Shown: positions 49,732 through 64,000 of the stretch, one piece after another
How positions within the stretch are numbered: the stretch's first letter is position 1
How the letters are laid out: each line of letters opens with the position of its first letter
Source of the DNA: an uncultured delta proteobacterium
GTDB lineage: Bacteria; Desulfobacterota; Syntrophorhabdia; Syntrophorhabdales; WCHB1-27
DNA length: 64,000 bases
Direction: 5' to 3'
NCBI GenBank assembly: GCA_963810935.1
Contig: CAWEPK010000007.1
Coordinates: 128,001 to 192,000 of the forward strand
Position numbers and translations under genes: made by a program
Notes under the pieces: generated by a model
Databases searched by the model: none
The model's input: the letters and a program-made list of their open reading frames with translations, nothing else
What the model was told of the DNA's origin: nothing

Positions 49732-49941
49732 CTAGTCTGCCGCGATTATAACGTTGCTTGCCTTGATCACCGCGTAAACTTCCTTCCCTTTCGAAATCTT
49801 TAGCGCCTCGGCGGACGTCTTCGTTATGATGGAGACGATCTCGGCGCCACCCGGGACCTCCACCACTACCTCTGAATTGACTGCACCGTGAGTAATGCTC
49901 TTGACCTTTCCCTTGAGAACGTTCCTTGCGCTTAGCTGCAT
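49732..49941 (-). CDS. mop: Molybdate/tungstate-binding Mop (TOBE, molbindin) protein
   Basis: AAGGAGG RBS; MQLSARNVLKGKV....GAVNSEV....IVSIITKTS...L....G.EVYAVIKASNV. Confidence 0.92.
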   Translation of the reverse strand: MQLSARNVLKGKVKSITHGAVNSEVVVEVPGGAEIVSIITKTSAEALKISKGKEVYAVIKASNVIIAAD

Positions 49942-50248
49942 GGGATCCTCCTTCAAGAATATGTTCTTAATAAACCATAATGCAACTAGTAGCATATGCA
50001 AGGGAATGGGAGAATATTCATTTGTTCTGCAGATAGGTAGTGACTCCCGAGTTCAATGGCCGGAGGGTTAACCTCCTCACACACGACGGCGCTGTGCCCC
50101 TCTCCGGCAAGCGTTATTTGTGGGTAACGCACAGGAGCGTGTTCGGCTCCATGAACACACAACCGTTCCGTGTCCTCTAATATTGCGCACTTACCCGTCT
50201 ACCCCGCAGCGTCTCCTTAACTTCAGTATCCCATAGTGAAAAATAGAC

Positions 50249-50304
50249 TTGACAAGCGGCGAGGCGGTCTGTAAACTTAGCGTTATTTCCTATCGGATAT
50301 AACG
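50249..50304 (+). promoter_or_regulatory. Sigma-70 promoter with ModE-type box 1
   Basis: TTGACA(50249)-N17-TAAACT(50272), followed by CGTTATTT-CCTATCGG-ATATAACG (50281-50304). Confidence 0.8.
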
Positions 50305-50364
50305 CATCCCGCCGCGTGGTTGAAGAAGGCGGCAATGCCGAATGATGAAAAAGGAGCGAGCATC

Positions 50365-50745
50365 ATGGGCCGAATACTTGATTCATTAACGCGTCTCTTG
50401 TTGCAGGAAAAGCTTCTCCGGAGGTTGTGCGGGGAAGTGGGCGAGACCGAGGCATCTGTTTGCGAGGTCCACATGAAGCAGGGGCAGGAATATAGGATCA
50501 GATGGGTGAGCCTTAATGGCGCCGGCCCGGTGGAGTTGTCGCTGAGAGCGGCCGGCGGCCGGGCGGTCCCCATTGTCGCTGATAAGAACGGGTTCGCCTT
50601 TGTTGCCCTTGAAGGAGGTGTCTACGAGGTCTGGGCAGGCTTACGGGCAGGCGAAGGCGGGCGCAAGCGGATCCCCGTCCAGATAACGGTTTGCTCGGTG
50701 TTTGCCCCGCCCCATTACGTAGAAAAGAACGTCTCCATGTATTGA
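50365..50745 (+). CDS. Hypothetical protein (126 aa)
   Basis: AAGGAG RBS before ATG 50365; own promoter with a ModE-type box; no family recognised. Confidence 0.6.
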   Translation: MGRILDSLTRLLLQEKLLRRLCGEVGETEASVCEVHMKQGQEYRIRWVSLNGAGPVELSLRAAGGRAVPIVADKNGFAFVALEGGVYEVWAGLRAGEGGRKRIPVQITVCSVFAPPHYVEKNVSMY

Positions 50746-50804
50746 GGCGAAAGGGCCGCAGGTCAGGCGCCCGCCAGTCGGCTTGCTAAAGCCCGGAGCC
50801 TTGA

Positions 50805-51546
50805 TTACCTGAGGATGAAGCCGTGTTTGATAAGGACCTTCCCGGCTTCTGCCGACTGTACGTACTTAAAGAACGCGGCCGCCTCGGGCTTGCCGACACC
50901 CCCGGCCGTCAATCCGACGGGATATGTCACGCGGGGGTACAGGTCTTGTGGCACCGTAAAAAGGATTTTCACGTTCCTGGCCATTTCGAGCGCATCCGTC
51001 TTGTAGACGAAGGCGCCGTCCACTTCGCCGCTGTCCGCATACGTGAGGCAGGCGCGTACGTCCTTTGCCATTATCATCTTGCCTTCAAGTTGCGAGTACA
51101 TGCCCGCTTTTTTGAGTGCTTCGACGGCGTATTGACCCGCGGGCACGCTATTGGGGCTGCCAATCGCTATCTTACTCAGTTTTGTAAGGTCTTTGAGCCC
51201 GCTCACCTTCAATGCCGGCTTGCCGACGAACACCAGGTCATTGTACGCGAAGAGCGTGGTATTCTTCTCACCTATAATCTTCTTTTCCTTCAGGTAGTCC
51301 ATCCATTCCGTGTTCGCGGAGAAGAAAAGGTCGGCGGGAGCGCCATTCTCGACTTGTTTGGCAAGGAAGCCCGACGCCCCGAAATTGTTCCGGAACGTTA
51401 TCCCTGCGTTCTTCGCCGAGAAGTTATTCTCCACGCTCGGTGAGGCTGGCAGCCACCGACGCGTAAATGTCCACGGCCGCCGCCGGGAAAGCAAAGAAGA
51501 TAACAAAAAATATCACGGTAAGGGACTTTAGAATGACTTTTCTCAT
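50805..51546 (-). CDS. modA: Molybdate ABC substrate-binding protein, frameshifted near 51435 (possible pseudogene)
   Basis: AGGAGG RBS; signal peptide and VAASLT in one frame; FGASG.LAKQVENGAPADLFFSAN, IAIGSP.SVPAGQYA, DVRA, GAFVYKTDA in the next frame. Confidence 0.88.
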
Positions 51547-51593
51547 CGCTTCCTCCTGAATTCGGAAAAAAGGGCCGTTGCATGTACAAGGCC

Positions 51594-51617
51594 TGTTATA
51601 TTTGATCATGCCTAACG
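51594..51617. promoter_or_regulatory. ModE-type box 2 (upstream of modA)
   Basis: TGTTATAT-TTGATCAT-GCCTAACG, ~48 nt upstream of the modA start; minus-strand TTGACT at 51630-51625. Confidence 0.65.
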
Positions 51618-51766
51618 TGGGACAAGTCAAGCATGAGCGCGGACATGCCTTCGACGTATTGGAAGACTTAACGGGCGTTTACTATGAAGATGGGCCGTCT
51701 GGTGGCGCATCCGACCAGGCGGCCCATTTGCTCGCGCGAATGACCTTCAGAGAACCGCTGGCCAAA

Positions 51767-53158
51767 TCACGGCTGGTACGCCCAGAAGTCGTTGTATACG
51801 TTGCCGCTGACGTCCTCTCCGCCGAACAGCCGGAAGTTGCCGGCCGAGTCGATCCAGGAGACGGGAGAATTCCTGCCCCCCGGCGTGGCCGCCGCCCCCG
51901 CGTAGCTGACTGACTGATTTATGGTATTGCTGCCCGACACCCAGGTCCATGTAGTGGTAGACGGGTCGAATGTCCAGAGGTCGCTGAGGTCGCCATAATT
52001 GCCGGCCGAATCGTAGCCGTATCCGCCGAAGAGCCAGAATTTGCCGGCAGAGTCGGTCCAGGAGGCGGACCAACCCCTGCACCCCGGCGTGCCCGTCGTC
52101 CCCGTCGTCGCGCCATAGGTGCCCGGCTTACCTTGAGTTTTGCCGCCGGAAACCCAGGTCCACGTGCTGGTAGACGGGTTGAATTCCCAGAGGTCGTTGA
52201 GGTCGCCATAACTACCCGTCGAATCGTGGCCGTATCCGCCGAAGAGCCAGAGGTTGCCGGCCGAGTCGATCCAGGAGATGGAGGCGTACCTGCACCCCGG
52301 CATGCCCGTCGTCCCTGTCGTCGCGCCATAGGTACCTGACTTACCTTCGGCATTGCCGCCGGAGACCCAGGTCCATGTAGTGGTAGACGGGTCGAATTCC
52401 CAGAGGTCGTTGAGATCGCCGCTGTTCGCCCCCGCATCCTCGCCGTATCCGCCGAAGAGCCAGAATTTGCCGGCAGAGTCGGTCCAGAAGGCGGGCCAGG
52501 CCCTGGCCCCCGGCATGCCCGTCGTTCCCGTGGTGGCACCGTAGGTGCCTCCCGTACCTATGTTCTTGCTGCCCGAAATCCAGGTCCATGTGGCAGCAGC
52601 GGGGTTGAATTTCCATAGGTCGTTGTATGTGGAGCCAGTGCCGTTATTTCCGCCGAAGAGCCATAAGTTGCCCGCCGAATCGGCCCAGGAGGCGGAGGCG
52701 AGCCTGGCCCCCGGCATACCCGTCGTGCCCGTAGTCGCGCCGTAGGTGCCTGAATGATTTACGGTATTGCTGCCCGACACCCAGGTCCATGTAGTAGTAG
52801 CCGGGTTGAATTCCCAGAGATCGTTGAGGACGCCGTTGTCGCCGACCGAATCGTAGCCGTATCCGCCGAAAAGCCAGAAGTTGCCTGCCGGATCGGTCCA
52901 GGAGGCGGACGTCATCCTGGTCCCCGGCGTGCCCGTCGTGCCCGTGGTCGCGCCGTAGGCGCCTGAATGATTTACAGTATCACTGCCCGACGTCCAGGTC
53001 CACTCATGAGGCAGGATTGTCTGGGAGGGAGAGGCAGCAGAAGGAGAGGCGGGGGAGGGAGAGGCCGTCGAGCCACCACCGCTGCCGCCGCACGAACAGA
53101 GCAACATGAACACGGAAAGAATTGCACACGACAGCGTAACACTTCTGGATGCCTTCAT
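51767..53158 (-). CDS. Kelch-repeat (beta-propeller) lipoprotein
   Basis: Lipobox LCSC-GG; Ser/Pro linker; six ~70-aa repeats WTWVSG....G.YGATTGTTG.PG.R....SWTDSAG.FWLFGG.G......NDLW.F.P. Confidence 0.9.
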   Translation of the reverse strand: MKASRSVTLSCAILSVFMLLCSCGGSGGGSTASPSPASPSAASPSQTILPHEWTWTSGSDTVNHSGAYGATTGTTGTPGTRMTSASWTDPAGNFWLFGGYGYDSVGDNGVLNDLWEFNPATTTWTWVSGSNTVNHSGTYGATTGTTGMPGARLASASWADSAGNLWLFGGNNGTGSTYNDLWKFNPAAATWTWISGSKNIGTGGTYGATTGTTGMPGARAWPAFWTDSAGKFWLFGGYGEDAGANSGDLNDLWEFDPSTTTWTWVSGGNAEGKSGTYGATTGTTGMPGCRYASISWIDSAGNLWLFGGYGHDSTGSYGDLNDLWEFNPSTSTWTWVSGGKTQGKPGTYGATTGTTGTPGCRGWSASWTDSAGKFWLFGGYGYDSAGNYGDLSDLWTFDPSTTTWTWVSGSNTINQSVSYAGAAATPGGRNSPVSWIDSAGNFRLFGGEDVSGNVYNDFWAYQP

Positions 53159-53309
53159 CCCTCATCCTCCTCGATCAGTTCCGGTAGCTAAGCTGTTTGG
53201 ATGCAATATGCAGGCTGCCGCGTCTGTCAGCGCACCGGTTTTACGGCTATATAATTGAAAGTTCCGTTCTATGCTCAGAGCGTTATGCATGTCGAAGAAT
53301 ACCGTTACG

Positions 53310-53333
53310 CGTTATATCGCATAGGATAGAACG
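53310..53333. promoter_or_regulatory. ModE-type box 3 (Kelch lipoprotein promoter)
   Basis: CGTTATAT-CGCATAGG-ATAGAACG, 3 nt downstream of a minus-strand TTGACA (53342-53337). Confidence 0.75.
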
Positions 53334-53398
53334 GCTTGTCAAGCTTTTTCTAATCCTTCTGTGAAAACTGTATTGACCGAAGAAAAAGCTTGACATGA

Positions 53399-53422
53399 CG
53401 TTGCTACTCATGAGATATAACG
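53399..53422. promoter_or_regulatory. ModE-type box 4 (TPS operon promoter)
   Basis: CGTTGCTA-CTCATGAG-ATATAACG, 3 nt downstream of a plus-strand TTGACA (53390-53395). Confidence 0.7.
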
Positions 53423-53914
53423 CTTAAGCTTTATGTCGCCCTGAGGAATAACGCCTGCGGAATGGCACTGGAAGACCAAGTCTGTCAGCCGTTATCGTAA
53501 TGCATCAACTCTGCGGGGCCGGAAATTGTGTATGCAGTCCGGCCGGTGATCCCGGACGTTCGGGCCACCCCCTTATCGAGGGAGTTGCGCCGGGGGTCAT
53601 GCGGAATGTTCGGTTATTTTTCGACCGCCCTGAGCCGGCGGCGGAAATCGTGTGGGCAACGGAAAGTAATAGATAAGAGGCAAGGTGGGACTGTTTTGAA
53701 GTCGGCGGCGTTCATCTCCGGCACAGCACAAAGGAAATTACCCGCACCGGCAAGCCTCATCCCGGCGTTTAAAGCGTCCCGTGGACAACCGTTTAAAATT
53801 TACACCCGGCCGAGTCCCGCAAGGATTTGCACTTTTAAACACCCTCGGCATCCGGGGAATTCGGATCGTGACGATTCTTGTTTTCTCAACCTGTAAGGAG
53901 CAAAGGAGGATGTG

Positions 53915-56900
53915 ATGAAGTGGATCAACCGGAAGGTGTTTAAAGAGAAGAAGAAGGATATCTCACTCGCCCTTGGCCCTGCTTTGGCTCTACGGTCTCC
54001 TTGCAACCCCTGCCCTTGCCGCCCCAACAGGCGGCGTAGTCACAAGCGGCGCCGCCGCCATAGTCCAGTCGGGCAATACAACGAACATCAACCAGTCCAC
54101 GAACAAGGCCTCCATCAACTGGCAGACCTTCAGCATAGCCCCGGCAGAGACGGTCAACTTCAACCAGCCTAGCATCTACGCCATCACCTTGAACAGGGTA
54201 GTCGGCAATGAGAGCAGTATCATCCAGGGGGCCCTTAACGCCACAGGCAGGGTATACCTTATCAACTCCAACGGCATCCTCTTCACCAAGGGGTCTAGTG
54301 TAAATACCTCAGGCTTCTTAGCCAGTACCCTGAACATAACGGATGCGGACTTCAACGCAGGCAATTACGTATTCAACGCCAACGGCTCTTTAGGCTCCGT
54401 AGTAAACCAGGGGACTATAACAGCCAACAACGGAGGGTATGTAGCCCTTCTAGGCAATACGGTATCCAACCAGGGGGTAATAGCAGCTACCAAGGGGACG
54501 GTAGCCTTAGCCTCAGGCGACCAGATAACCTTAAACTTCAACGGCAACTCCCTCCTTAACGTAACGATAGACCAGGGAACCTTAAATGCCCTGGTAGAGA
54601 ACAAGCAGGCCATCTATGCAGACGGGGGTACGGTAATCCTTACCGCCAAAGCAGCAGACGACCTCCTATCCGCCCAGGTGAATAACTCAGGGCTGATCCA
54701 GGCGCGCACTATAGACGACCTGAAAGGCAATATAAAGCTCTATGCGGATGGGGGTACGGTCAACGTGTCGGGCACGCTCGATGCCTCGGCTCCTAATGGG
54801 GGAGACGGGGGGTTGATAGAGACGAGCGGGAACAAAGTGAGCATAGCGGATAGCGCCATTGTAACCACCAAATCGGCCTACGGTACTAACGGCACATGGC
54901 TCCTGGACCCGGATGGGTTTACGATAGGGCTTACATCGGCAGACGGCGACATGACCGCCACCGCCCTCAACACGGCCCTCACCTCCGGCAATGTCACCAT
55001 CGCGTCTACCAGCGGGTCAGGGACCGACGGCAACATCAATGTCAATGGTGCAGTGACCTGGTCTGCCAATACCTTAACCCTGAACGCCACGAACAATGTT
55101 TATGTCAACGCGGTAATGACCGCCACGGGGACGGCGAGCTTCGCCGCCAACTACGGCTATCTGCTCAGCAACGGTGTCCCTACGACTACACCGAGCGGGA
55201 CGGGAAATGCCGATGGGACGCCGTATGGGCTTTACTGTTACCAGGGCGCTGCACTCGGCTCGTTCGTCGGCAGCGTCAATTTCAGCGGGATCGGGACCGT
55301 GATGTTGAACGGCCAGAACTACACCCTCATCAACGCCGCGACAACCACCGCGACAAATGGCGTGATGGCCTATGGACTGGATTACATCGCAAACAACCTG
55401 GCGGGGAACTACGTGCTGGGCAGCAACATCACGGGTTCCTGGACCGGCCCTATCTCGGCATCCGATTTTACAGGCAATTTCAACGGCTTCGGCCATACGA
55501 TCTCTTCACCCATCCTGACGGCAACTGGAGTGTTCGGCACTATCGGCTCCGGCGGAACGGTCAGCAACATCGGCGTCGTCTCCGCCACTGTCACCGCCGC
55601 CGCAAGTGGCGCAAGCACGGTGCCAGCCGTCGGGACACTCGCGAACTATAACCAGGGCGACATCATCAACAGCTTCGCCAGCGGCACACTGAATAACTCG
55701 AACATCACTAGCGCCGGCGGTTTGGTGGGCGCCAACTCCGGCCTGATCGCGCAAAGCTACTATGCGGGCCAGGTCTTCGCCGTGAATATCGCGGGCGGCC
55801 TGGTCGGCACGAACGCAAGCGGCGGGACGGTCCTCGACAGCTCGGCGCCGGGTTCGGGAGCCGCCTATTACGTCTGGAATACCTCCGGGGCCACAGGCAT
55901 CACCTATGTGGGCGGCCTGGTCGGCGTAAACCAATATGGCGGAACGATCAGCCGGTCCTATGCAGGAAACCTGATAAAGATGAGCGACACGACTTCCACG
56001 GCCGGTGCTTTTGTCGGGGAGAACAGCGGCTCCATCGACCAGTGTTACGCATACAAGTACAGCACGCTCGGTTTCCCCATAGGCCCCAATCTCGCAGGGT
56101 TCGTCTGGAACAACACCTCAACCGGCACGATCACCAACTCATATACCACGGCCCTTTACAGCAGCTCAACAAGCGCGAACTGGACAGCCGGCTTCGCCTA
56201 CGAGAACGAGGGCACGATCACGAACGCCTACGCCACCTCGTATTCCGCCGGCACCTTAAACAGCGCGCGATACGGATTCGTATACAGCAACACGGGCACG
56301 ATCACGGACGCCTACTGGTACGCATACACGAGTTCCGGCTCGACGCCAGTTACCGACACATCAGGCGCGACGAACCTGACCGCCACCCAGGCAGCTACCT
56401 TCTCAAGCTACACAGGGTTTGGCACCAGCGACTGGGCGGCCTCTAAATCCGGCTACCCCATCCTTGACAACCTCTTCGTATATGTGAGCAACAGCAGCAC
56501 CCCCACCTATGGCAGTGCCACGTCGACCATATCCACGCTGGGTCTAACGGCGCGGGGTCTACAGGGAGGAGGCGGCGCCGGCGGCGGCGGCGGCACAACC
56601 AGTCTGCTGGACAGCATCACCTCGACCACGTACAATCCGTTCACCGTAACGACGGACAACGGTTATGTAGATGCCGGTGTCTGGAAGGCTACGGCTATCC
56701 TGTCATCATCAACGCCATACGAGAACATCAAGGGCGTTGTCATGGTAAACCGCAAGGCCCTGACCCTTGCCTCCGGCACGGTTCAGAACAAGACCTACGA
56801 CGGCACCACGTCGGCGGCGTTCAACGGCACGCCGACCCTCAGCGGCTTCGTGAACGGCCAGACCCTCAACGTTACCTATACGTCCGCCGCCTTTGCCAGC

Positions 56901-59900
56901 CCGAACGCAGGGACGGGCCAGACCGTCAATCTCACCTATACCGCGGCCAACGGCACGAACGGCGGCCAATTGAACAATTACACGATCCCGAGCACGACCA
57001 CGGCAACGATCACGCCTAAGAGCATCACCGCCACTATCTCGGCGAATAACAAGACCTACGACGGCACCACGACGGACACCGCGACCTACACGCTGCCCGG
57101 CGTGATCTCTGGAGACAACCTGTCTTTGGCGTACAGCGCAGCCTTCACCGACCCGAACGCTGCAGCGAACAAGACGGTGAACATTACGGGAATATCCCTC
57201 TCGGGAACATCCGCCGGCAATTATTCGTTGACTAACACTTCTACTCTTCAGACAACGGCGACCATCAGCCCCTTGGCGCTCATCCTTTACGGTGCCCTAT
57301 CCTCGAATCCCGGTAGCACAACCATCCCCGCCTCGACCCTCAGCGCCACCAACGTAGTCGTGGGCGATACGGTTGCTATAGGCGGTTCGGCGACCATCGC
57401 CGGCACCTCGTCGGGCGCCCAGCCGATCACAAACGTAAGCAGCCTGACCGTCAGTAACCCAAATTACACACTCACCGGGGCAACCGGCGCGGTTGTGATA
57501 GGTCACCAGAGCCTGGCGCTGGACCACGTGGCCAGCGGCACGGCCAATATCTCCACCTCAGGCACTACCACCACTATTACGACAAGTACTAATAGTACGG
57601 TAATCGACTGGTGGCGCTTCATGATCGCCGCCAACGAGACGGTGAACTTCGTCGAGCCTTCGGCCACATCCATCGTGCTCAACAGGGTAACGGGTAGCGA
57701 GCAGAGCGTGATCAACGGTATCCTGACGGCGAATGGCAGGGTCTTCCTTATCAATTCGAACGGTATCCTCTTCGGGTCAGGCTCCAGCGTCAACGTCGGC
57801 GCCTTCCTGGCTAGCAGTCTCAGCATAAGCGACACCAACTTCAATGGCGGTAACTACGTCTTCGCCCCGGCCAGCACAAGCGCCCCGGTCATCAACAACG
57901 GCGGCATTACTACAAGCGATGGAGGGTTCATCGCCCTGTCAAGCAACCAGGGCGTCACCAACTCCGGCACCCTTAACGCCCCTGACGGTAAGGCCCTTCT
58001 GGTGTCGGCCGACAGTCTGACCCTGAGCCCGAATACGGCCACGAACGGCCTTACGAGCTATGCCATCGCCTCACTCGATGGGACGACGATCTTGAACGGC
58101 GTGGTGAACGTAGCGGGATCTCTCAGTAACGGGGGGCTCATAGAAACAGCCGGTTCGGTCATCAGCCTGGGCAATGGCTACCAGATAGGCACCGGCAACA
58201 GCGGGCCCTGGTCCTACAGCCTGCCCACTATCACCATCGGCAGCAGCGGGAATGTGGCCGCCTTATTCATAGAAAATAGTCTGGCCCTTCGCAACCTCAC
58301 TTTCAATGCACTTAACGGCAATATCACCTTCAACGACGCCGTCACCTGGTCCGGGAACTACCTCCTCACGCTCAACGCGGCGAACAACATCAACATCAAC
58401 AACGCCATCGCTGGGACGGGCACAAGTTCCGGCCTGGCCATGAACTACGGCGGCAGCTACAACATCCTTACTCCTGCTTCCTTCAGCGGCGCGGTCCTCA
58501 ACTCCGCCGGGATACCGATTGCCCAGACGGATACGAGCGGAGGGGTTTATGGGAGCGTCTCCCTATCGGGCTCGGGTGCATGCCTAAAGATAAACGGTAA
58601 TGCCTACACACTGATCCACAGCATGAGCCAGTCCCGATTTGCTCGACGGCTTTAACTCCACAACCACGGTGGACACAGGCACCATCTCCGGGTACTATGC
58701 CCTGGCTCAGAACCTCAATGCCTCCGGCACAACTTACGAGGCACCGCTCATAGGCGGCTTCTCCGGCACCTTCGCCGGTCTCGGGCACACCATCAGCAGC
58801 CTTACCCTGAACACGCCCTTGAGCGCGGTAGGGCTCATAGGCACAACGGCATCCGCAGGGACTACCGTGATACGTGATATAGGGCTCACGAACGTCAGCA
58901 TCACCGGGGGCGGTCTTCTGGGAGCGTTGATAGGCAATGCCGGTGCCGGAACCACCATCAGCCAGGCATATGCCGATCAAGGCAGCGTAACCGGTACGGG
59001 GGGTAGCGTAGGCGGGCTGATAGGGACCATTACGAGATCAAGCGTTACGAACTGTTACACCAACGTGAACGTGACTGACCCCACAGGGCAGTATGTCGGC
59101 GGGCTGATCGGCGCAGCCACTACCACACCTATCACCAGTTCACATGCTTCGGGAACGGTGATCGAGGGAACGGCAGGGGCACTCACTTATATGGGTGAAG
59201 GCGGCCTTGCCGGATATACCACCGGTGGTACGACAGTAACCAATTCTTACGCAACCGGCAACGTGACCGCAGCCGTCTCATCGGAATACGTAGGCGGCCT
59301 CATCGGGTGGCTCAACTCACAAACGGGTGACTCGGTCACTAACTCCTTTGCGACCGGAAGTGTGGTGGGATACAACACCGTCGGCGGCCTCATAGGAACT
59401 GTAGGCATGGTCGGGTCCGGGGGTCTGCTGACCGTCAGTAACTGCTATGCAACGGGCAACGTGACGTCAACCTGGAACGACTCTAACTCTAACGACAGTA
59501 ATTATTATAACGGAGCAGGCCTGGGAGGCCTTATCGGCTATGCGTACTATGTAAACATCACCAACTCCTTTGCCACGGGCGCCGTGAGCCTGCCCACGAC
59601 GAGTACAAGCGTTCAATTTCAGTACATAGGCGGCCTTGTTGGCGAGATACAGAAGGGATCGGTTACCGACTCCTACGCCACGGGAAATGTCAATGCCGGG
59701 GCGGCCGGTTACTACGTGGGCGGCTTGGGGGGCTCGGCCGGTACCACCGTCACCAACTCCTATGCCACGGGTAACGTAACAGGCTACCAGGATGTCGGGG
59801 GCCTGCTGGGAGTGAACTCCGCCACGACAAGCAACTCCTATGCCACGGGCAACGTGTACGCCACTTTCGAGATTGCCGGCGGCCTGGTAGGTTGTGGCGG

Positions 59901-60648
59901 CGGCACCATCACCAATTCATATTCCACGGGCAACGTGTACGCCGGTCGGTGGGCCGGAGGGTTCGCCGGAGATATCGCTTATATGACCATTATCAACTCG
60001 TACGCCACGGGCAATGTCACGGCAAACGGCGCTGCGGGAGGCGGGTTCGGAAGATTGGATGCCAATAACACCGTCACGGACTTCTATACGACGGGCACCG
60101 TCACCAGCAGCACCGGTATTGCGGGTCCACTTGTCGGAGAATTACAGTACGGGGGTAACAACATCACCAATACGTTCTGGAACGGGAGCAGCCAGGGGAA
60201 TCCGGCCGGCCAGACGGATACCGCCGGCTCTCTCCCGGGCCACGCCAACTATAACAACTCCCAGGGCCTCACCACGACACAGATGAACGACGTGCAGTAC
60301 TACATGAACGGCACCATCAATCAAGTGCTTGCAGTGCGCGCGGCGGAGGCGGCCTACGCAGCCCAGCAGGAAGCCAATTTCGAGGCCGACGGACAGCAGA
60401 CCGGCGGCCAGGCATCATTCAGCGGCCAGGAGAGCAACGCTACCGGCCAGGGGCTCAATAACCAGATCAGCAGCTTTACGCCTTCCAACACCGGGACGGT
60501 TAACGGGACGATGGATAACCATATCGTCTACTCCGATTCGGGCAGCTACTCAGCCACCATAAAGTCGATCAATGCAGACGGCATGCAGTTCGACCTGGAG
60601 GGCGGCGCGCCGGACGGTGCAAATGTCCCAGGCGGGACAAATAAATGA
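53915..60648 (+). CDS. Giant filamentous-haemagglutinin-type TpsA exoprotein 1 (TPS domains, GLUG and YDG-like repeats); two +1 frameshifts (~53971, ~58635)
   Basis: AGGAGG RBS; signal peptide; TPS domain (INWQTFSI..ETVNFNQP...LNRV...LINSNGI); GGLVG/GGLIG..SYATGNV repeats; NKTYDGTT repeats. Removing two bases gives one 2243-aa ORF. Confidence 0.88.
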
Positions 60649-60682
60649 CCGGACTTCGACTAACTATGGAAAGGATAAAAAT

Positions 60683-61679
60683 ATGAACGTAATAAGATCG
60701 CTTATACTTGCTCTTATCATGGTTTCTCTCGGGTTTTCCCCGGTCTTCGCGCAGAAAACCGCGACGAAGCCCGCTGCAACAAACCCTAAGCCCGCCGCCG
60801 AGAAAAAGCCGGGGGTAGTGGCTGTAGTAAACGGCTCCGATATCAACCTTGACACTTTTACAGTGGAGCTGTACCGGGCGGAGCGCCAAATCCTTAACGC
60901 AGGCAGGCCGCTCTCCGCGCTGCAGGTGACGCGTCTGAAGTCAGAGGTGCTGGAAGCCCTGGTCAGGCAGGAGCTTCTTTACCAGGAAGCCAGGAAGACG
61001 GTCCGGGTTACAGACACCGAGATCGCGGGGGAGCTGGAGAAGCTGAAGGACCAGTTCCAGAACACGTCCGACTTCACAAGGCTCACTCCCGTGCTGCGGG
61101 TGCAGGTAGAACGAGGCCTCGCGATCCGCAAATACATAGACAGCGCTTACGTCTCCAAGGCGACCGTGACGGACGCGGAGATCAAGGTCCTATTACGACG
61201 GCCACAGGGACGGCTTCCGCCAGCCCGAGCAGGTGAAAGCAGCCTACATATTCGTCAAGGTCGATCCTCAGAATGAGGCCAAAAAAGCGGAGTCGAAAAA
61301 GAAGATAGAAGACATCAAAAAGAAACTTTCCGCAGGAGAAGACTTTGCCGCCCTCGCGCGCGCCAATTCCGACGACATCACCGGCGCACGCGGCGGGGAC
61401 CTGGGTTACGTGCGGCAGGGGCAATTGAACAAGCCCGTCGAGGAAGCCCTTTTTTCGCTGAAGCCTGGAGAAGTGAGCGACATAGTCGAAACGAAGGTGG
61501 GCTATAACCTCGTAAAGGCCGTAGAGCGCAAGCCCGAGACCACAATGCCTTTCGAGAACGTGAAGGACCAGTTGCGCACAGCCCTCCGGCAGGAAAAGGG
61601 GCAGCAGGAAGCTAACGCCTATATCGTAAAGGTGCGGGAGAAAGCCGCTGTCGAAACATTCCTGCCTGCGGAGGAATAG
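60683..61679 (+). CDS. SurA/PpiC-type peptidyl-prolyl isomerase (foldase); +1 frameshift near 61186
   Basis: Signal peptide; VAVVNG..I, LVRQELLYQEA; rotamase motifs GEDFAALA..NSDD...GGDLG, EALFSLKPGEVSDIVETKVGY; 331 aa after correction. Confidence 0.88.
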
Positions 61680-61735
61680 GTGGAGGGCTGGAGCCGTTTG
61701 TGTCACGGAGCCTAACAAATAACATGGGGGGCTTT

Positions 61736-64000
61736 ATGCGTATGAAATGGAGTCATAGTAAGAAACCGATGTCTCTTGCCTTGGCCCTGCTTTGGCTCTA
61801 CGGCCTCCTGGCAGGCCCTCTTCTGGCCGCCCCCACGGGCGGCGTAGTGACAAGCGGCACCGCCGCCATAGTCCAGTCGGGCAATACAACGAACATCAAC
61901 CAGTCCACGAACAAGGCCTCCATAAACTGGCAGACATTCAGCATAGCCCCGGCAGAGACGGTCAACTTCAACCAGCCTGGCATCTACGCCGTTACCCTGA
62001 ACAGGGTGGTAGGCAATGAAAGCAGCCTAATCCAGGGTGCATTAAACGCTACAGGCAGGGTATACCTTATCAACTCCAACGGCATCCTCTTCACCAAGGG
62101 GTCTAGTGTAAATACCTCAGGCTTCTTAGCCAGTACCCTGAACATAACGGATGCGGACTTCAACGCAGGCAACTACGTATTCAACGCCAACGGTTCTTTA
62201 GGCTCCATAGTAAACCAGGGGACTATAACAGCCAACAACGGAGGGTATGTAGCCCTTCTGGGCAATACGGTATCCAACCAGGGGGTAATAGCAGCCACCA
62301 AGGGTACGGTAGCTCTAGCCTCAGGCGACCAGATAACCTTAAACTTCAACGGCAACTCCCTCCTTAACGTAACGATAGACCAGGGCACCTTAAATGCCCT
62401 GGTAGAGAACAAGCAGGCCATCTATGCAGACGGGGGTACGGTAATCCTCACCGCCAAAGCAGCAGACGACCTCCTATCCGCCCAGGTGAATAACTCAGGG
62501 CTGATCCAGGCGCGCACCATAGACGACCTTAAAGGCAACATAAAGCTTCTCGCCCAGGGAGGTACGGTCAACGTGGCAGGTACGCTGGACGCCTCGGCCC
62601 CTAACGGCGGGGACGGGGGGTTGATAGAGACGTCGGGCAACAGCGTGAAGGTGGCCGACAGCGCAGTCATCACCACTGCGGCGGCTTACGGCAAGGCGGG
62701 GACGTGGGTTATAGACCCGGATGGGTTTACCATCAGCGTGCTGAACGGAGACATGAGCGGCACGGCGCTCTCCAATGCCCTTAATAGCGGGAATGTCACT
62801 ATCGCCTCTACGTCCGGCTCCGGCACAGACGGCAACATAAACGTAAACGACCCGGTGTCCTGGTCGGCCAATACGCTCACCCTTAACGCCACCAACAACA
62901 TTTACGTCAATAACGTGATGACGGCCACAGGGACGGCGAGCTTTGCGGCCAATTACGGTTACGTTCTTAACAACGGTGTCCCGACGACGACGCCGAGCGG
63001 CACGGGCAACGCGGACGGCACGCCTTATGGGCTGTACATGAGCCAGGGCATGTTTAACCCGAACTCCTGGACCAGGTCGTTCGCCGGCCAGATCTATTTC
63101 AGCGGGACCGGCACCGTGAAGCTGAACGGCACAACCTACACAGTCATTAGCGATTTGAACGGACTGGAAGCAGTCAACAACAATCTGGCCGGAAACTACG
63201 TACTCGGCGCCGACATCGGCAGCGTCATGTACTTTGGCCCGACTGCGTATTGGAATGAATTCACCGTCCCCAACTCCATCGGCAGCGCCGGCACCCCTTT
63301 CACCGGCAACTTCAACGGCTTAGGCCATGCGGTCCAGATCCCCGAGTTGGCCGCGACGGGACTTTTCGGCGCCATCGGCCACGGCGGTACGGTCAGCAAC
63401 CTGGCTATCTTCGATCCCCAGATCGACCCCCAGACGAACCCCTCTGTCGCGATCCCGGCCGTAGGGATGTTCGCGAACATAAACCAGGGCAGCATCATCA
63501 ACAGCTTTGTCTCCAGCCTCAATTGGGGTGTGGTCTTTAATAACTTGAACATCACCTATGCTGGCGGCCTGGTCGGCGACAATTCCGGGCTGATAGCGCA
63601 GACCTATGTTTTCGGCGCCCCTATGTATGCGACGAATGTCGCCGGCGGCCTGGTCGGCATCAACGAAGCGTCCGGCAAGATCATCGACAGCTCGGCGCGG
63701 TCCGACCCCAATACTTACCTCGGCTCTATCCAAAATACCAACGCCACTGGCATTACCTACGTGGGTGGTCTGGTAGGGATAAATAACGGCCAAATCGAAC
63801 GCTCCTATTCCAACGTCCAGTTACAGCTTTCAGACTCGACTTCAACGGCCGGTGGTTTTGTCGGACAGAATAACGGAACCATCGACCAGTGCTATGCATA
63901 TATGTCCGGAACCAACCAGGCTGCCACTCTCGCGGGATTCGTCTACGACAACACCGCAACCGGCAAGATCACGAACTCTTATACTACGGCCCTCTACACC
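61736..64000 (+). CDS. Filamentous-haemagglutinin-type TpsA exoprotein 2 (partial, runs off the right edge)
   Basis: Hand translation gives MRMKWSHSKKPMSLALALLWLYGLLAGPLLAAPTGG...; the same frame at the window end reads GKITNSYTTALYT, collinear with exoprotein 1. Confidence 0.9.
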   Translation, partial: MRMKWSHSKKPMSLALALLWLYGLLAGPLLAAPTGGVVTSGTAAIVQSGNTTNINQSTNKASINWQTFSIAPAETVNFNQPGIYAVTLNRVVGNESSLIQGALNATGRVYLINSNGILFTKGSSVNTSGFLASTLNITDADFNAGNYVFNANGSLGSIVNQGTITANNGGYVALLGNTVSNQGVIAATKGTVALASGDQITLNFNGNSLLNVTIDQGTLNALVENKQAIYADGGTVILTAKAADDLLSAQVNNSGLIQARTIDDLKGNIKLLAQGGTVNVAGTLDASAPNGGDGGLIETSGNSVKVADSAVITTAAAYGKAGTWVIDPDGFTISVLNGDMSGTALSNALNSGNVTIASTSGSGTDGNINVNDPVSWSANTLTLNATNNIYVNNVMTATGTASFAANYGYVLNNGVPTTTPSGTGNADGTPYGLYMSQGMFNPNSWTRSFAGQIYFSGTGTVKLNGTTYTVISDLNGLEAVNNNLAGNYVLGADIGSVMYFGPTAYWNEFTVPNSIGSAGTPFTGNFNGLGHAVQIPELAATGLFGAIGHGGTVSNLAIFDPQIDPQTNPSVAIPAVGMFANINQGSIINSFVSSLNWGVVFNNLNITYAGGLVGDNSGLIAQTYVFGAPMYATNVAGGLVGINEASGKIIDSSARSDPNTYLGSIQNTNATGITYVGGLVGINNGQIERSYSNVQLQLSDSTSTAGGFVGQNNGTIDQCYAYMSGTNQAATLAGFVYDNTATGKITNSYTTALYT

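Follow-up and report, generated by a model that had tools for sequence, protein, structure and literature searches.

A two-partner secretion operon with its own ExbBD–TonB genes under predicted ModE-type control: a candidate system for molybdate capture

An operon in the order TpsA1–SurA/PpiC–TpsA2–TpsB–ExbB–ExbD–TonB was found at the end of a 64,000-nucleotide stretch of DNA from an uncultured delta proteobacterium of the Syntrophorhabdales (assembly GCA_963810935.1, contig CAWEPK010000007.1, positions 128,001 to 192,000; this whole stretch is called the window), and it runs beyond the window end. Judging from the sequences, it is very probable that this cassette is under ModE-type control. 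Since ModE-type operators are found here and in many unrelated bacteria, the cassette is likely to be on under molybdenum starvation, and I infer that its role may be molybdate capture. A sequence-only reading of the window had proposed a TpsA-PpiC-TpsA system under molybdate or tungstate control. The TPS (two-partner secretion) operon was borne out, while the core of the system turned out to be TpsA–TpsB–ExbB–ExbD–TonB, usually with a secreted-type ModA (molybdate-binding protein), and lies mostly outside the window.

The same reading had listed four 24-bp sites as ModE boxes. All four are present exactly as written, at 50281..50304, 51594..51617, 53310..53333 and 53399..53422 (no strand assigned), and their geometry equals that of the E. 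coli-type ModE consensus ATCGNTATATA-N6-TATATANCGAT given in a passage of PMC545781. In the 4.06-Mb genome, the operator CGNTATAT-N8-ATATANCG exceeds background: 12 sites have at most two mismatches to CGTTATAT-N8-ATATAACG at spacer 8, versus 0, 1, 1, 0, 0 and 1 at the wrong spacers 5, 6, 7, 9, 10 and 11. A position weight matrix (PWM) was trained on 8 sites, all outside the window and none before TPS genes, and the window sites were ranked among 4.06 million genome positions. The site facing the Kelch gene (53310) scored 27.6 bits and ranked 6th, and the site at 50281 scored 25.5 bits and ranked 7th; each has one mismatch to the consensus. The operator of modA at 51594 (15.1 bits, rank 18, four mismatches) is modest, since the wrong spacers yield 3–11 sites of at least 15 bits. 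The degenerate site facing tpsA1 at 53399 (four mismatches) is by itself at background level, because it ranks only 180th with 7.0 bits.

The 53399 site nevertheless gains support from its promoter architecture. As had been claimed, it shares a TTGACA-N3-box arrangement with the 53310 site, where it is read on the minus strand. Both belong to the six genome-wide occurrences of the pattern TTGAC-N3-5-YGTT-N12-NNNTAACG, which was composed with these sites already in view and occurs 0 times at each of six wrong spacings. A relative (G019) has a TpsA promoter of like form, TTGACA-N3-CGTT…GAGATATAACG, so that a weak operator is a supported reading of the 53399 sequence. The window operators overlap promoters; a sigma70-like promoter, TTGACA-N17-TAAACT (50250..50278, plus strand), lies directly before the 50281 box.

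Boxes were found at all three modA loci of the genome, including those before modABC (C8:11236, 15.2 bits) and before modD–modA (C15:72030, 23.6 bits), and also before a modE gene (C11:85219, 31.6 bits). In operator geometry and in these boxed genes (modA, modD–modA, modABC, modE) the set resembles the known ModE regulon. TPS, ExbBD–TonB and the 126-aa family described below were not met as ModE targets in the open literature surveyed. All three TpsA loci of the genome carry a box (18.7 bits and 22.2/16.1 bits for the orphan TpsA genes on contigs C12 and C17), and their upstream regions have in common only short matches of 36–56 bp. The tupABC genes have no box in the genome (best 1.7 bits). 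Thus, molybdate rather than tungstate is indicated, tungsten-specific control was rejected, and the tungsten part of the earlier proposal is not supported. The genome has eight AOR-family (PF01314) genes, which suggests a high demand for Mo/W cofactors.

It had been stated that no modE, modB or tpsB lies inside the window, which holds; all are encoded elsewhere in the genome. The three ModE-type genes found there are TIGR00637 matches under the curated cut-off. Their open frames of 111–137 aa contain HTH_1 only and no molybdate-binding TOBE domains; separate mop genes are present, and the second mop is divergent from one modE. Since these ModE proteins are DNA-binding domains only, sensing may need Mop in trans. 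One could also suppose that such short ModE-family proteins bind the box and answer some other signal, so that the molybdenum link would be indirect. Their size of ~110 aa, their scores below the TIGR00637 cut-off and the broad regulon of this family favor the supposition, and a passage of PMC545781 calls molybdenum sensing by single-domain ModE unclear. I consider it very improbable: all three modA loci are boxed but tupA is not, one modE stands divergent from a mop gene, the cassette has its own ModA-like gene in most lineages, and in several genomes with the cassette full-length frames match ModE above the cut-off.

Is the box conserved together with the TPS genes? It was found to be kept both in relatives and far outside the family. 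In a wide scan with a TpsB alignment, 505 loci were collected from species-representative genomes and the best 80 were kept. Among the 65 loci with at least 5 kb upstream (taxon labels assigned by hand), 29 carry a box scoring at least 18 bits upstream of tpsB, versus 0 of 59 downstream controls. Boxed loci make up 5/5 in Desulfobacterota, 13/15 in Betaproteobacteria, 7/12 in non-methanotroph Alphaproteobacteria, and 4/4 of those unassigned. No box of this strength was found in methanotrophs (0/15), Azomonas (0/2), or Campylobacterota (0/12). The loci L067, L069 and L089 are unboxed at spacer 8 and have strong sites at other spacers. In Variovorax IB41, whose genome is 6.9 Mb, all four near-consensus sites (4/4) lie at this one locus. 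A ModE-family match was present in 42 of the 42 genomes tested, tonB follows tpsB in several loci even without exbBD, and 7 of the loci fetched include type II secretion genes. Cultured carriers include Variovorax, Ideonella, Trinickia, Bradyrhizobium, Azoarcus, Uliginosibacterium, and S. aromaticivorans.

The Campylobacterota loci also lack tonB, the ModA-like gene, and the C-terminal TpsA motif, so they are taken as a different system. In a TpsB tree made by a quick method (81 rows), they grouped with the unboxed outgroup TpsB. No claim on clades or transfer is drawn from this tree, because long branches meet and the fused rows L104 and L112 are mis-trimmed. In these two loci (L104:9953-14470 and L112:9941-14464), TpsB is fused to two more outer-membrane beta-barrel domains (PF13505), followed by exbB–exbD–tonB. 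The methanotrophs Methylosinus sporium (L079, L081 and L085) and Methylocapsa aurea (L080, L082, L084, L100 and L115) have three to five paralogous TpsA–TpsB loci per genome, mostly without exbBD–tonB and the spacer-8 box.

Of 40 relatives, 15 have a TPS match. At the first-position TpsA loci of at least 75% identity (4 genomes), a site scoring 15 bits or more is present within 1.5 kb in 7 of 7, in one case 1.2 kb off, past a modE gene. The proportion was 1 of 16 at TpsA loci of at most 52% identity, and in six of these distant loci no site of 12 bits was seen over the 12–20 kb that were read. The cassette order in G019 and G033 is modE, TpsA, TpsB, ExbB, ExbD, TonB, modE, modE. In S. aromaticivorans, 25 box sites were counted versus 1 in the control (18 regions read). 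This species has a boxed cassette with a mere remnant of TpsA before TpsB (L058:9212-10001), and a boxed full TpsA elsewhere (L177).

By neighbor clustering, a ModA-like gene without modB stands beside TpsA in 37 of 88 loci, often co-oriented directly after TpsA. Sixteen of 19 such proteins tested match TIGR01256, and the nearest structures of the cassette ModA are the ModA entries 7t4z, a P. aeruginosa-type ModA, and 1atg. The oxyanion-binding motifs AxN[FLY] and APYG are kept in 37 of 43. These proteins were compared with 29 ordinary ModA of the same motif type from a class-wide sample. Their share of charged residues is 0.104 versus 0.195 in ordinary ModA, and that of Ser/Thr/Asn/Gly/Tyr is 0.42 versus 0.26; at least two cysteines occur in 42/43 versus 2/29, and modB is nearby in 0/37 loci versus 25/29. 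This make-up resembles that of TpsA and the Kelch protein, and the cassette ModA-like protein has a signal peptide. It is thus a predicted secreted carrier of molybdate. Compared with the ModABC importer, the cassette gene lacks modB but keeps the motifs, and binding is predicted. In six loci (L092, L093, L095, L099, L104, L112) two ModA-like genes stand in tandem; in most of them the AANF/APYG motifs are gone from the second copy, which might have another ligand. Among 300 further genomes of the Variovorax class, no match came near the score of the cassette ModA (best 175 versus 264 bits). Since this sample has no comparable match, the cassette looks rare.

The operon itself was followed past position 64000, where the sequence-only reading had suggested looking for tpsB and a receptor. 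TpsA1 (53915..60648, plus strand, in pieces 53915-, 53973-58655 and 58639-60648) has a signal peptide, an N-terminal TPS domain (PF05860, TIGR01901), a second TPS domain, and YDG and GLUG repeats. It is followed on the same strand by the SurA/PpiC-type chaperone (SurA_N and rotamase, 60572..61679) and the N-terminal part of TpsA2 (61700..64000), whose remainder extends to ~68.5 kb. In extended window numbering, TpsB (68763-70505), ExbB (70554-70994, TIGR02805 above cut-off), ExbD (70969-71355) and TonB (71381-72142) come next. TpsB homologues carry PF08479 and PF03865 (POTRA and ShlB-type barrel), and their profile matches CdiB and FhaC structures. The genome holds a single match to the cassette TpsB, and among named TpsB proteins those of Syntrophorhabdaceae come closest. 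Of the four TpsA genes, three (window 53973-58655, G000:C7:193387 and G000:C12:346233) have a second, internal TPS domain ~1200 residues in, and therefore tandem duplication of whole passenger units is suggested.

The modA, TpsA1 and SurA/PpiC genes are frameshifted in this assembly. The extra bases at 51434, 58632 and 61184 (the last splitting the chaperone gene) are missing from short-read contigs that one study produced, possibly from the source sample itself; the rows listed in that comparison do not include the TpsA1 break near 53972. Six of 26 unrelated genes are likewise split, and the assembly has about one frameshift per 5 kb. The breaks are therefore likely to be assembly errors, and pseudogene decay of the locus was rejected.

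No TonB-dependent receptor was found in the operon, and the PF00593 matches of the genome lie at least 40 kb away. Both receptor loci are unboxed (best 2.5 and 4.1 bits), and each has an exbB of its own close by; the notion of a receptor under a ModE box in this genome was thus rejected. These facts bear on the idea that TpsA only wedges molybdate off its carrier, as in HxuA, while the cassette TonB energizes a separate receptor encoded elsewhere. S. aromaticivorans does have a boxed TonB-dependent receptor divergent from modE, receptor genes occur near 7 loci, mostly of methanotrophs, and HxuA/HxuB are described in PMC4873976 as cooperating with the receptor HxuC. With both receptor loci unboxed here and the four sites of Variovorax IB41 all at the cassette, the idea seems rather improbable.

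All cassette TpsA proteins read to their ends, including 4/4 of this genome, finish with the motif [YF]xAxI[KR]xIxVDGxx[FY]xLE behind a low-complexity linker. In TpsA1, it lies at 60505..60606 on the plus strand (…NHIVYSDSGSYSATIKSINADGMQFDLE…) and has no Pfam match. When 1.84 billion representatives were searched with a profile of it, 138 matched, nearly all near the C-terminus. Among the 71 long matches, a strict pattern finds a TPS motif in 54, and most others look TPS-like by eye. The motif is a candidate periplasmic anchor or TonB-pairing strand. A single-sequence fold of the C-terminal 282 aa of TpsA1 was of low confidence (pLDDT 48) and was not used; it gave beta repeats and then helices, with the motif region unresolved.

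Taken together, these data lead me to a mechanism that I favor with some reserve: ModE would repress the cassette at ample molybdate, and a TPS–TonB system displayed under starvation would capture a molybdate carrier, with ModABC completing uptake. Low molybdate would release ModE from the operators. TpsB, which might also serve the two orphan TpsA loci, would then export TpsA filaments with the assistance of SurA/PpiC. Held at the periplasmic side by its C-terminal motif, TpsA would catch an extracellular molybdate carrier, the secreted-type ModA where it is present. The cassette's own TonB would energize release or entry, and ModABC would carry molybdate into the cytoplasm. Uptake is preferred mainly because a ModA-like gene is linked to the cassette across phyla.

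Several points weigh against this mechanism. Molybdate is generally held to pass porins without energy. No secreted-type ModA was found in this genome, which is 93% complete and in a profile search gave only the three ordinary ModA. The methanotroph and Azomonas loci, together with 5 of the 12 other alphaproteobacterial loci, lack an 18-bit box, even though the ModA-like gene is retained in 9 of the 15 unboxed methanotroph loci. Genomes that are related also do not count as independent samples. Moreover, the putative ModE-type regulon is broad in this family. The S. aromaticivorans boxes precede modA, modE, TpsA, a TonB-dependent receptor, BamA, glycosyltransferases and binding proteins, and the G019 boxes precede PEP-CTERM-like proteins and a second, DUF3739-type TPS. 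The box alone is therefore no proof of an uptake role. This breadth would suit a ModE-controlled adhesin or surface-remodeling module, in which molybdenum starvation cues attachment to minerals or partner cells and TonB powers the secretion, release or retraction of TpsA, not uptake. In its favor, TpsA consists of TPS, YDG and GLUG repeats and lacks any known ligand-binding domain, one genome has four diverged paralogues, and Oar/PopC is a described case in which a TonB system acts in secretion (PMC6434023). Such a module is a possible but unlikely explanation, as it gives no reason why 37 loci of several phyla have an orphan secreted-type ModA next to TpsA.

A bolder form of the uptake mechanism is speculative and rather unlikely. 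TpsA and TpsB may form a two-piece TonB-dependent importer without a classical receptor, in which TpsB is the barrel, TpsA is the external binding arm and plug, the C-terminal motif is the equivalent of a TonB box on which the cassette TonB pulls, and the secreted ModA is a protein molybdophore caught by TpsA. If true, this would be a new energized route of uptake across the outer membrane and would account for the uncharacterized TonB of the PdtAB locus described next.

Among known systems, the closest is found in P. aeruginosa, where a sigma-VreI locus for phosphate starvation comprises pdtA/pdtB, exbB2–exbD2–tonB4, a PpiC protein (PA0699), the Hxc type II secretion system and secreted LapA; its TonB system is termed uncharacterized (both in passages of PMC7035377). 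Like the cassette, this locus has a PpiC-type chaperone and a TPS pair with exbB–exbD–tonB behind it, and it is induced by starvation for an oxyanion nutrient, as is predicted for the cassette. Type II secretion genes, found in 7 of the loci fetched, are a further parallel. The two probably differ in control (PhoB/sigma-VreI versus the ModE box); they also differ in the ModA-like companion protein and in TpsA, which in the cassette has GLUG/YDG repeats and the C-terminal motif but no DUF3739. PF12545 (DUF3739) is absent from the TpsA1 pieces and the Variovorax TpsA. PdtA carries DUF3739. The DUF3739-type TpsB of G019 is only 26% identical to the cassette TpsB over 95 aa. No vreIR-like family was seen among the recurrent cassette neighbors; pho boxes were not scanned. 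In G019, six boxes of the locus L046 (G019:C26:244001-264000) surround genes for PEP-CTERM-like proteins, for a PBP_like_2 protein and for the DUF3739-type TPS pair; this is apparently a PdtAB-like locus under predicted ModE-type control.

The sequence-only reading had named HxuA as the analogue. PdtAB is closer, because the cassette operon has no receptor gene. Haemophilus HxuA/HxuB/HxuC resembles the proposal in using a surface TpsA with TonB-dependent uptake to acquire a nutrient, but the HxuC receptor has no counterpart in the cassette operon, and the nutrient and regulator differ (PMC4873976). In P. aeruginosa, secreted ModA is taken up via IcmP and is linked to the H2 type VI secretion system (H2-T6SS), as told in passages of PMC8602904 and PMC9769707. 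There ModA acts outside the cell and passes molybdate to an outer-membrane partner, as is proposed for the cassette. In contrast, the ModA of the cassette is dedicated to it, differs in composition from ordinary ModA, has a signal peptide and is encoded beside the TPS pair and TonB; neither T6SS nor IcmP was seen among the recurrent neighbor families of the cassette.

Left of the operon, the gene calls of the sequence-only reading hold (mop, modA and Kelch, as do TPS/YDG/GLUG and SurA_N plus rotamase within it). The mop gene (49732..49941, minus strand) encodes a single-TOBE molbindin of 69 aa (PF03459; TIGR00638 above cut-off) and starts, in divergent orientation, 340 bp away from the 50281 box. 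On the other side of this box lies the gene of a 126-aa protein (50365..50745, plus strand), whose assignment to the regulon stands: the genome has three paralogues, and 3/3 have a top-ranked box. This protein has no Pfam or NCBIfam match, and a homologue search returned only itself. In the Atlas, it falls in unnamed clusters only, with a weak lead to a PPC domain (12% of one cluster). The modA gene (50805..51547, minus strand, TIGR01256 176 bits), with the extra base at 51434, is of ordinary composition and has no adjoining modB. The Kelch-repeat protein (51767..53158, minus strand) has a lipobox-like LCSC and is boxed only in this copy; within 1.5 kb of its paralogue and of the homologues in five relatives there is no box, and scores reach 4.9 bits at most. 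The Kelch lipoprotein, once proposed as part of the system, was thus rejected as a conserved component.

Elsewhere in the genome, the densest box cluster (G000:C11:82455-85683, five sites) surrounds a 583-aa exported protein, a 126-aa paralogue and modE; the C-terminal part of the exported protein was judged by eye to be tetrapyrrole-methylase-like. At G000:C1:95085-95222, a perfect box and two weak ones lie in a TTGAC promoter, with a gene for a glycosyltransferase-like membrane protein following after ~280 bp. S. aromaticivorans and G033 likewise have glycosyltransferase or TPR membrane genes behind boxes, and their products might modify TpsA.

No description of a ModE- or molybdate-linked TPS or TPS–TonB system was found by title or abstract opening in the open literature, with subscription journals, regulon databases and supplementary tables lying outside that search. 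The cassette is real and apparently undescribed, a molybdate counterpart of an architecture that is known but has no explanation yet. With it come two features that lack annotation: a subfamily of secreted-type ModA and a motif at the C-terminus of TpsA. Since the inducing condition, the ligand and the TonB contact are predicted and cultured carriers exist, the role of TonB beside a TPS pair becomes directly testable. Gathering molybdate at very low or mineral-bound levels would bear on nitrogen fixation, nitrification and anaerobic aromatic degradation.

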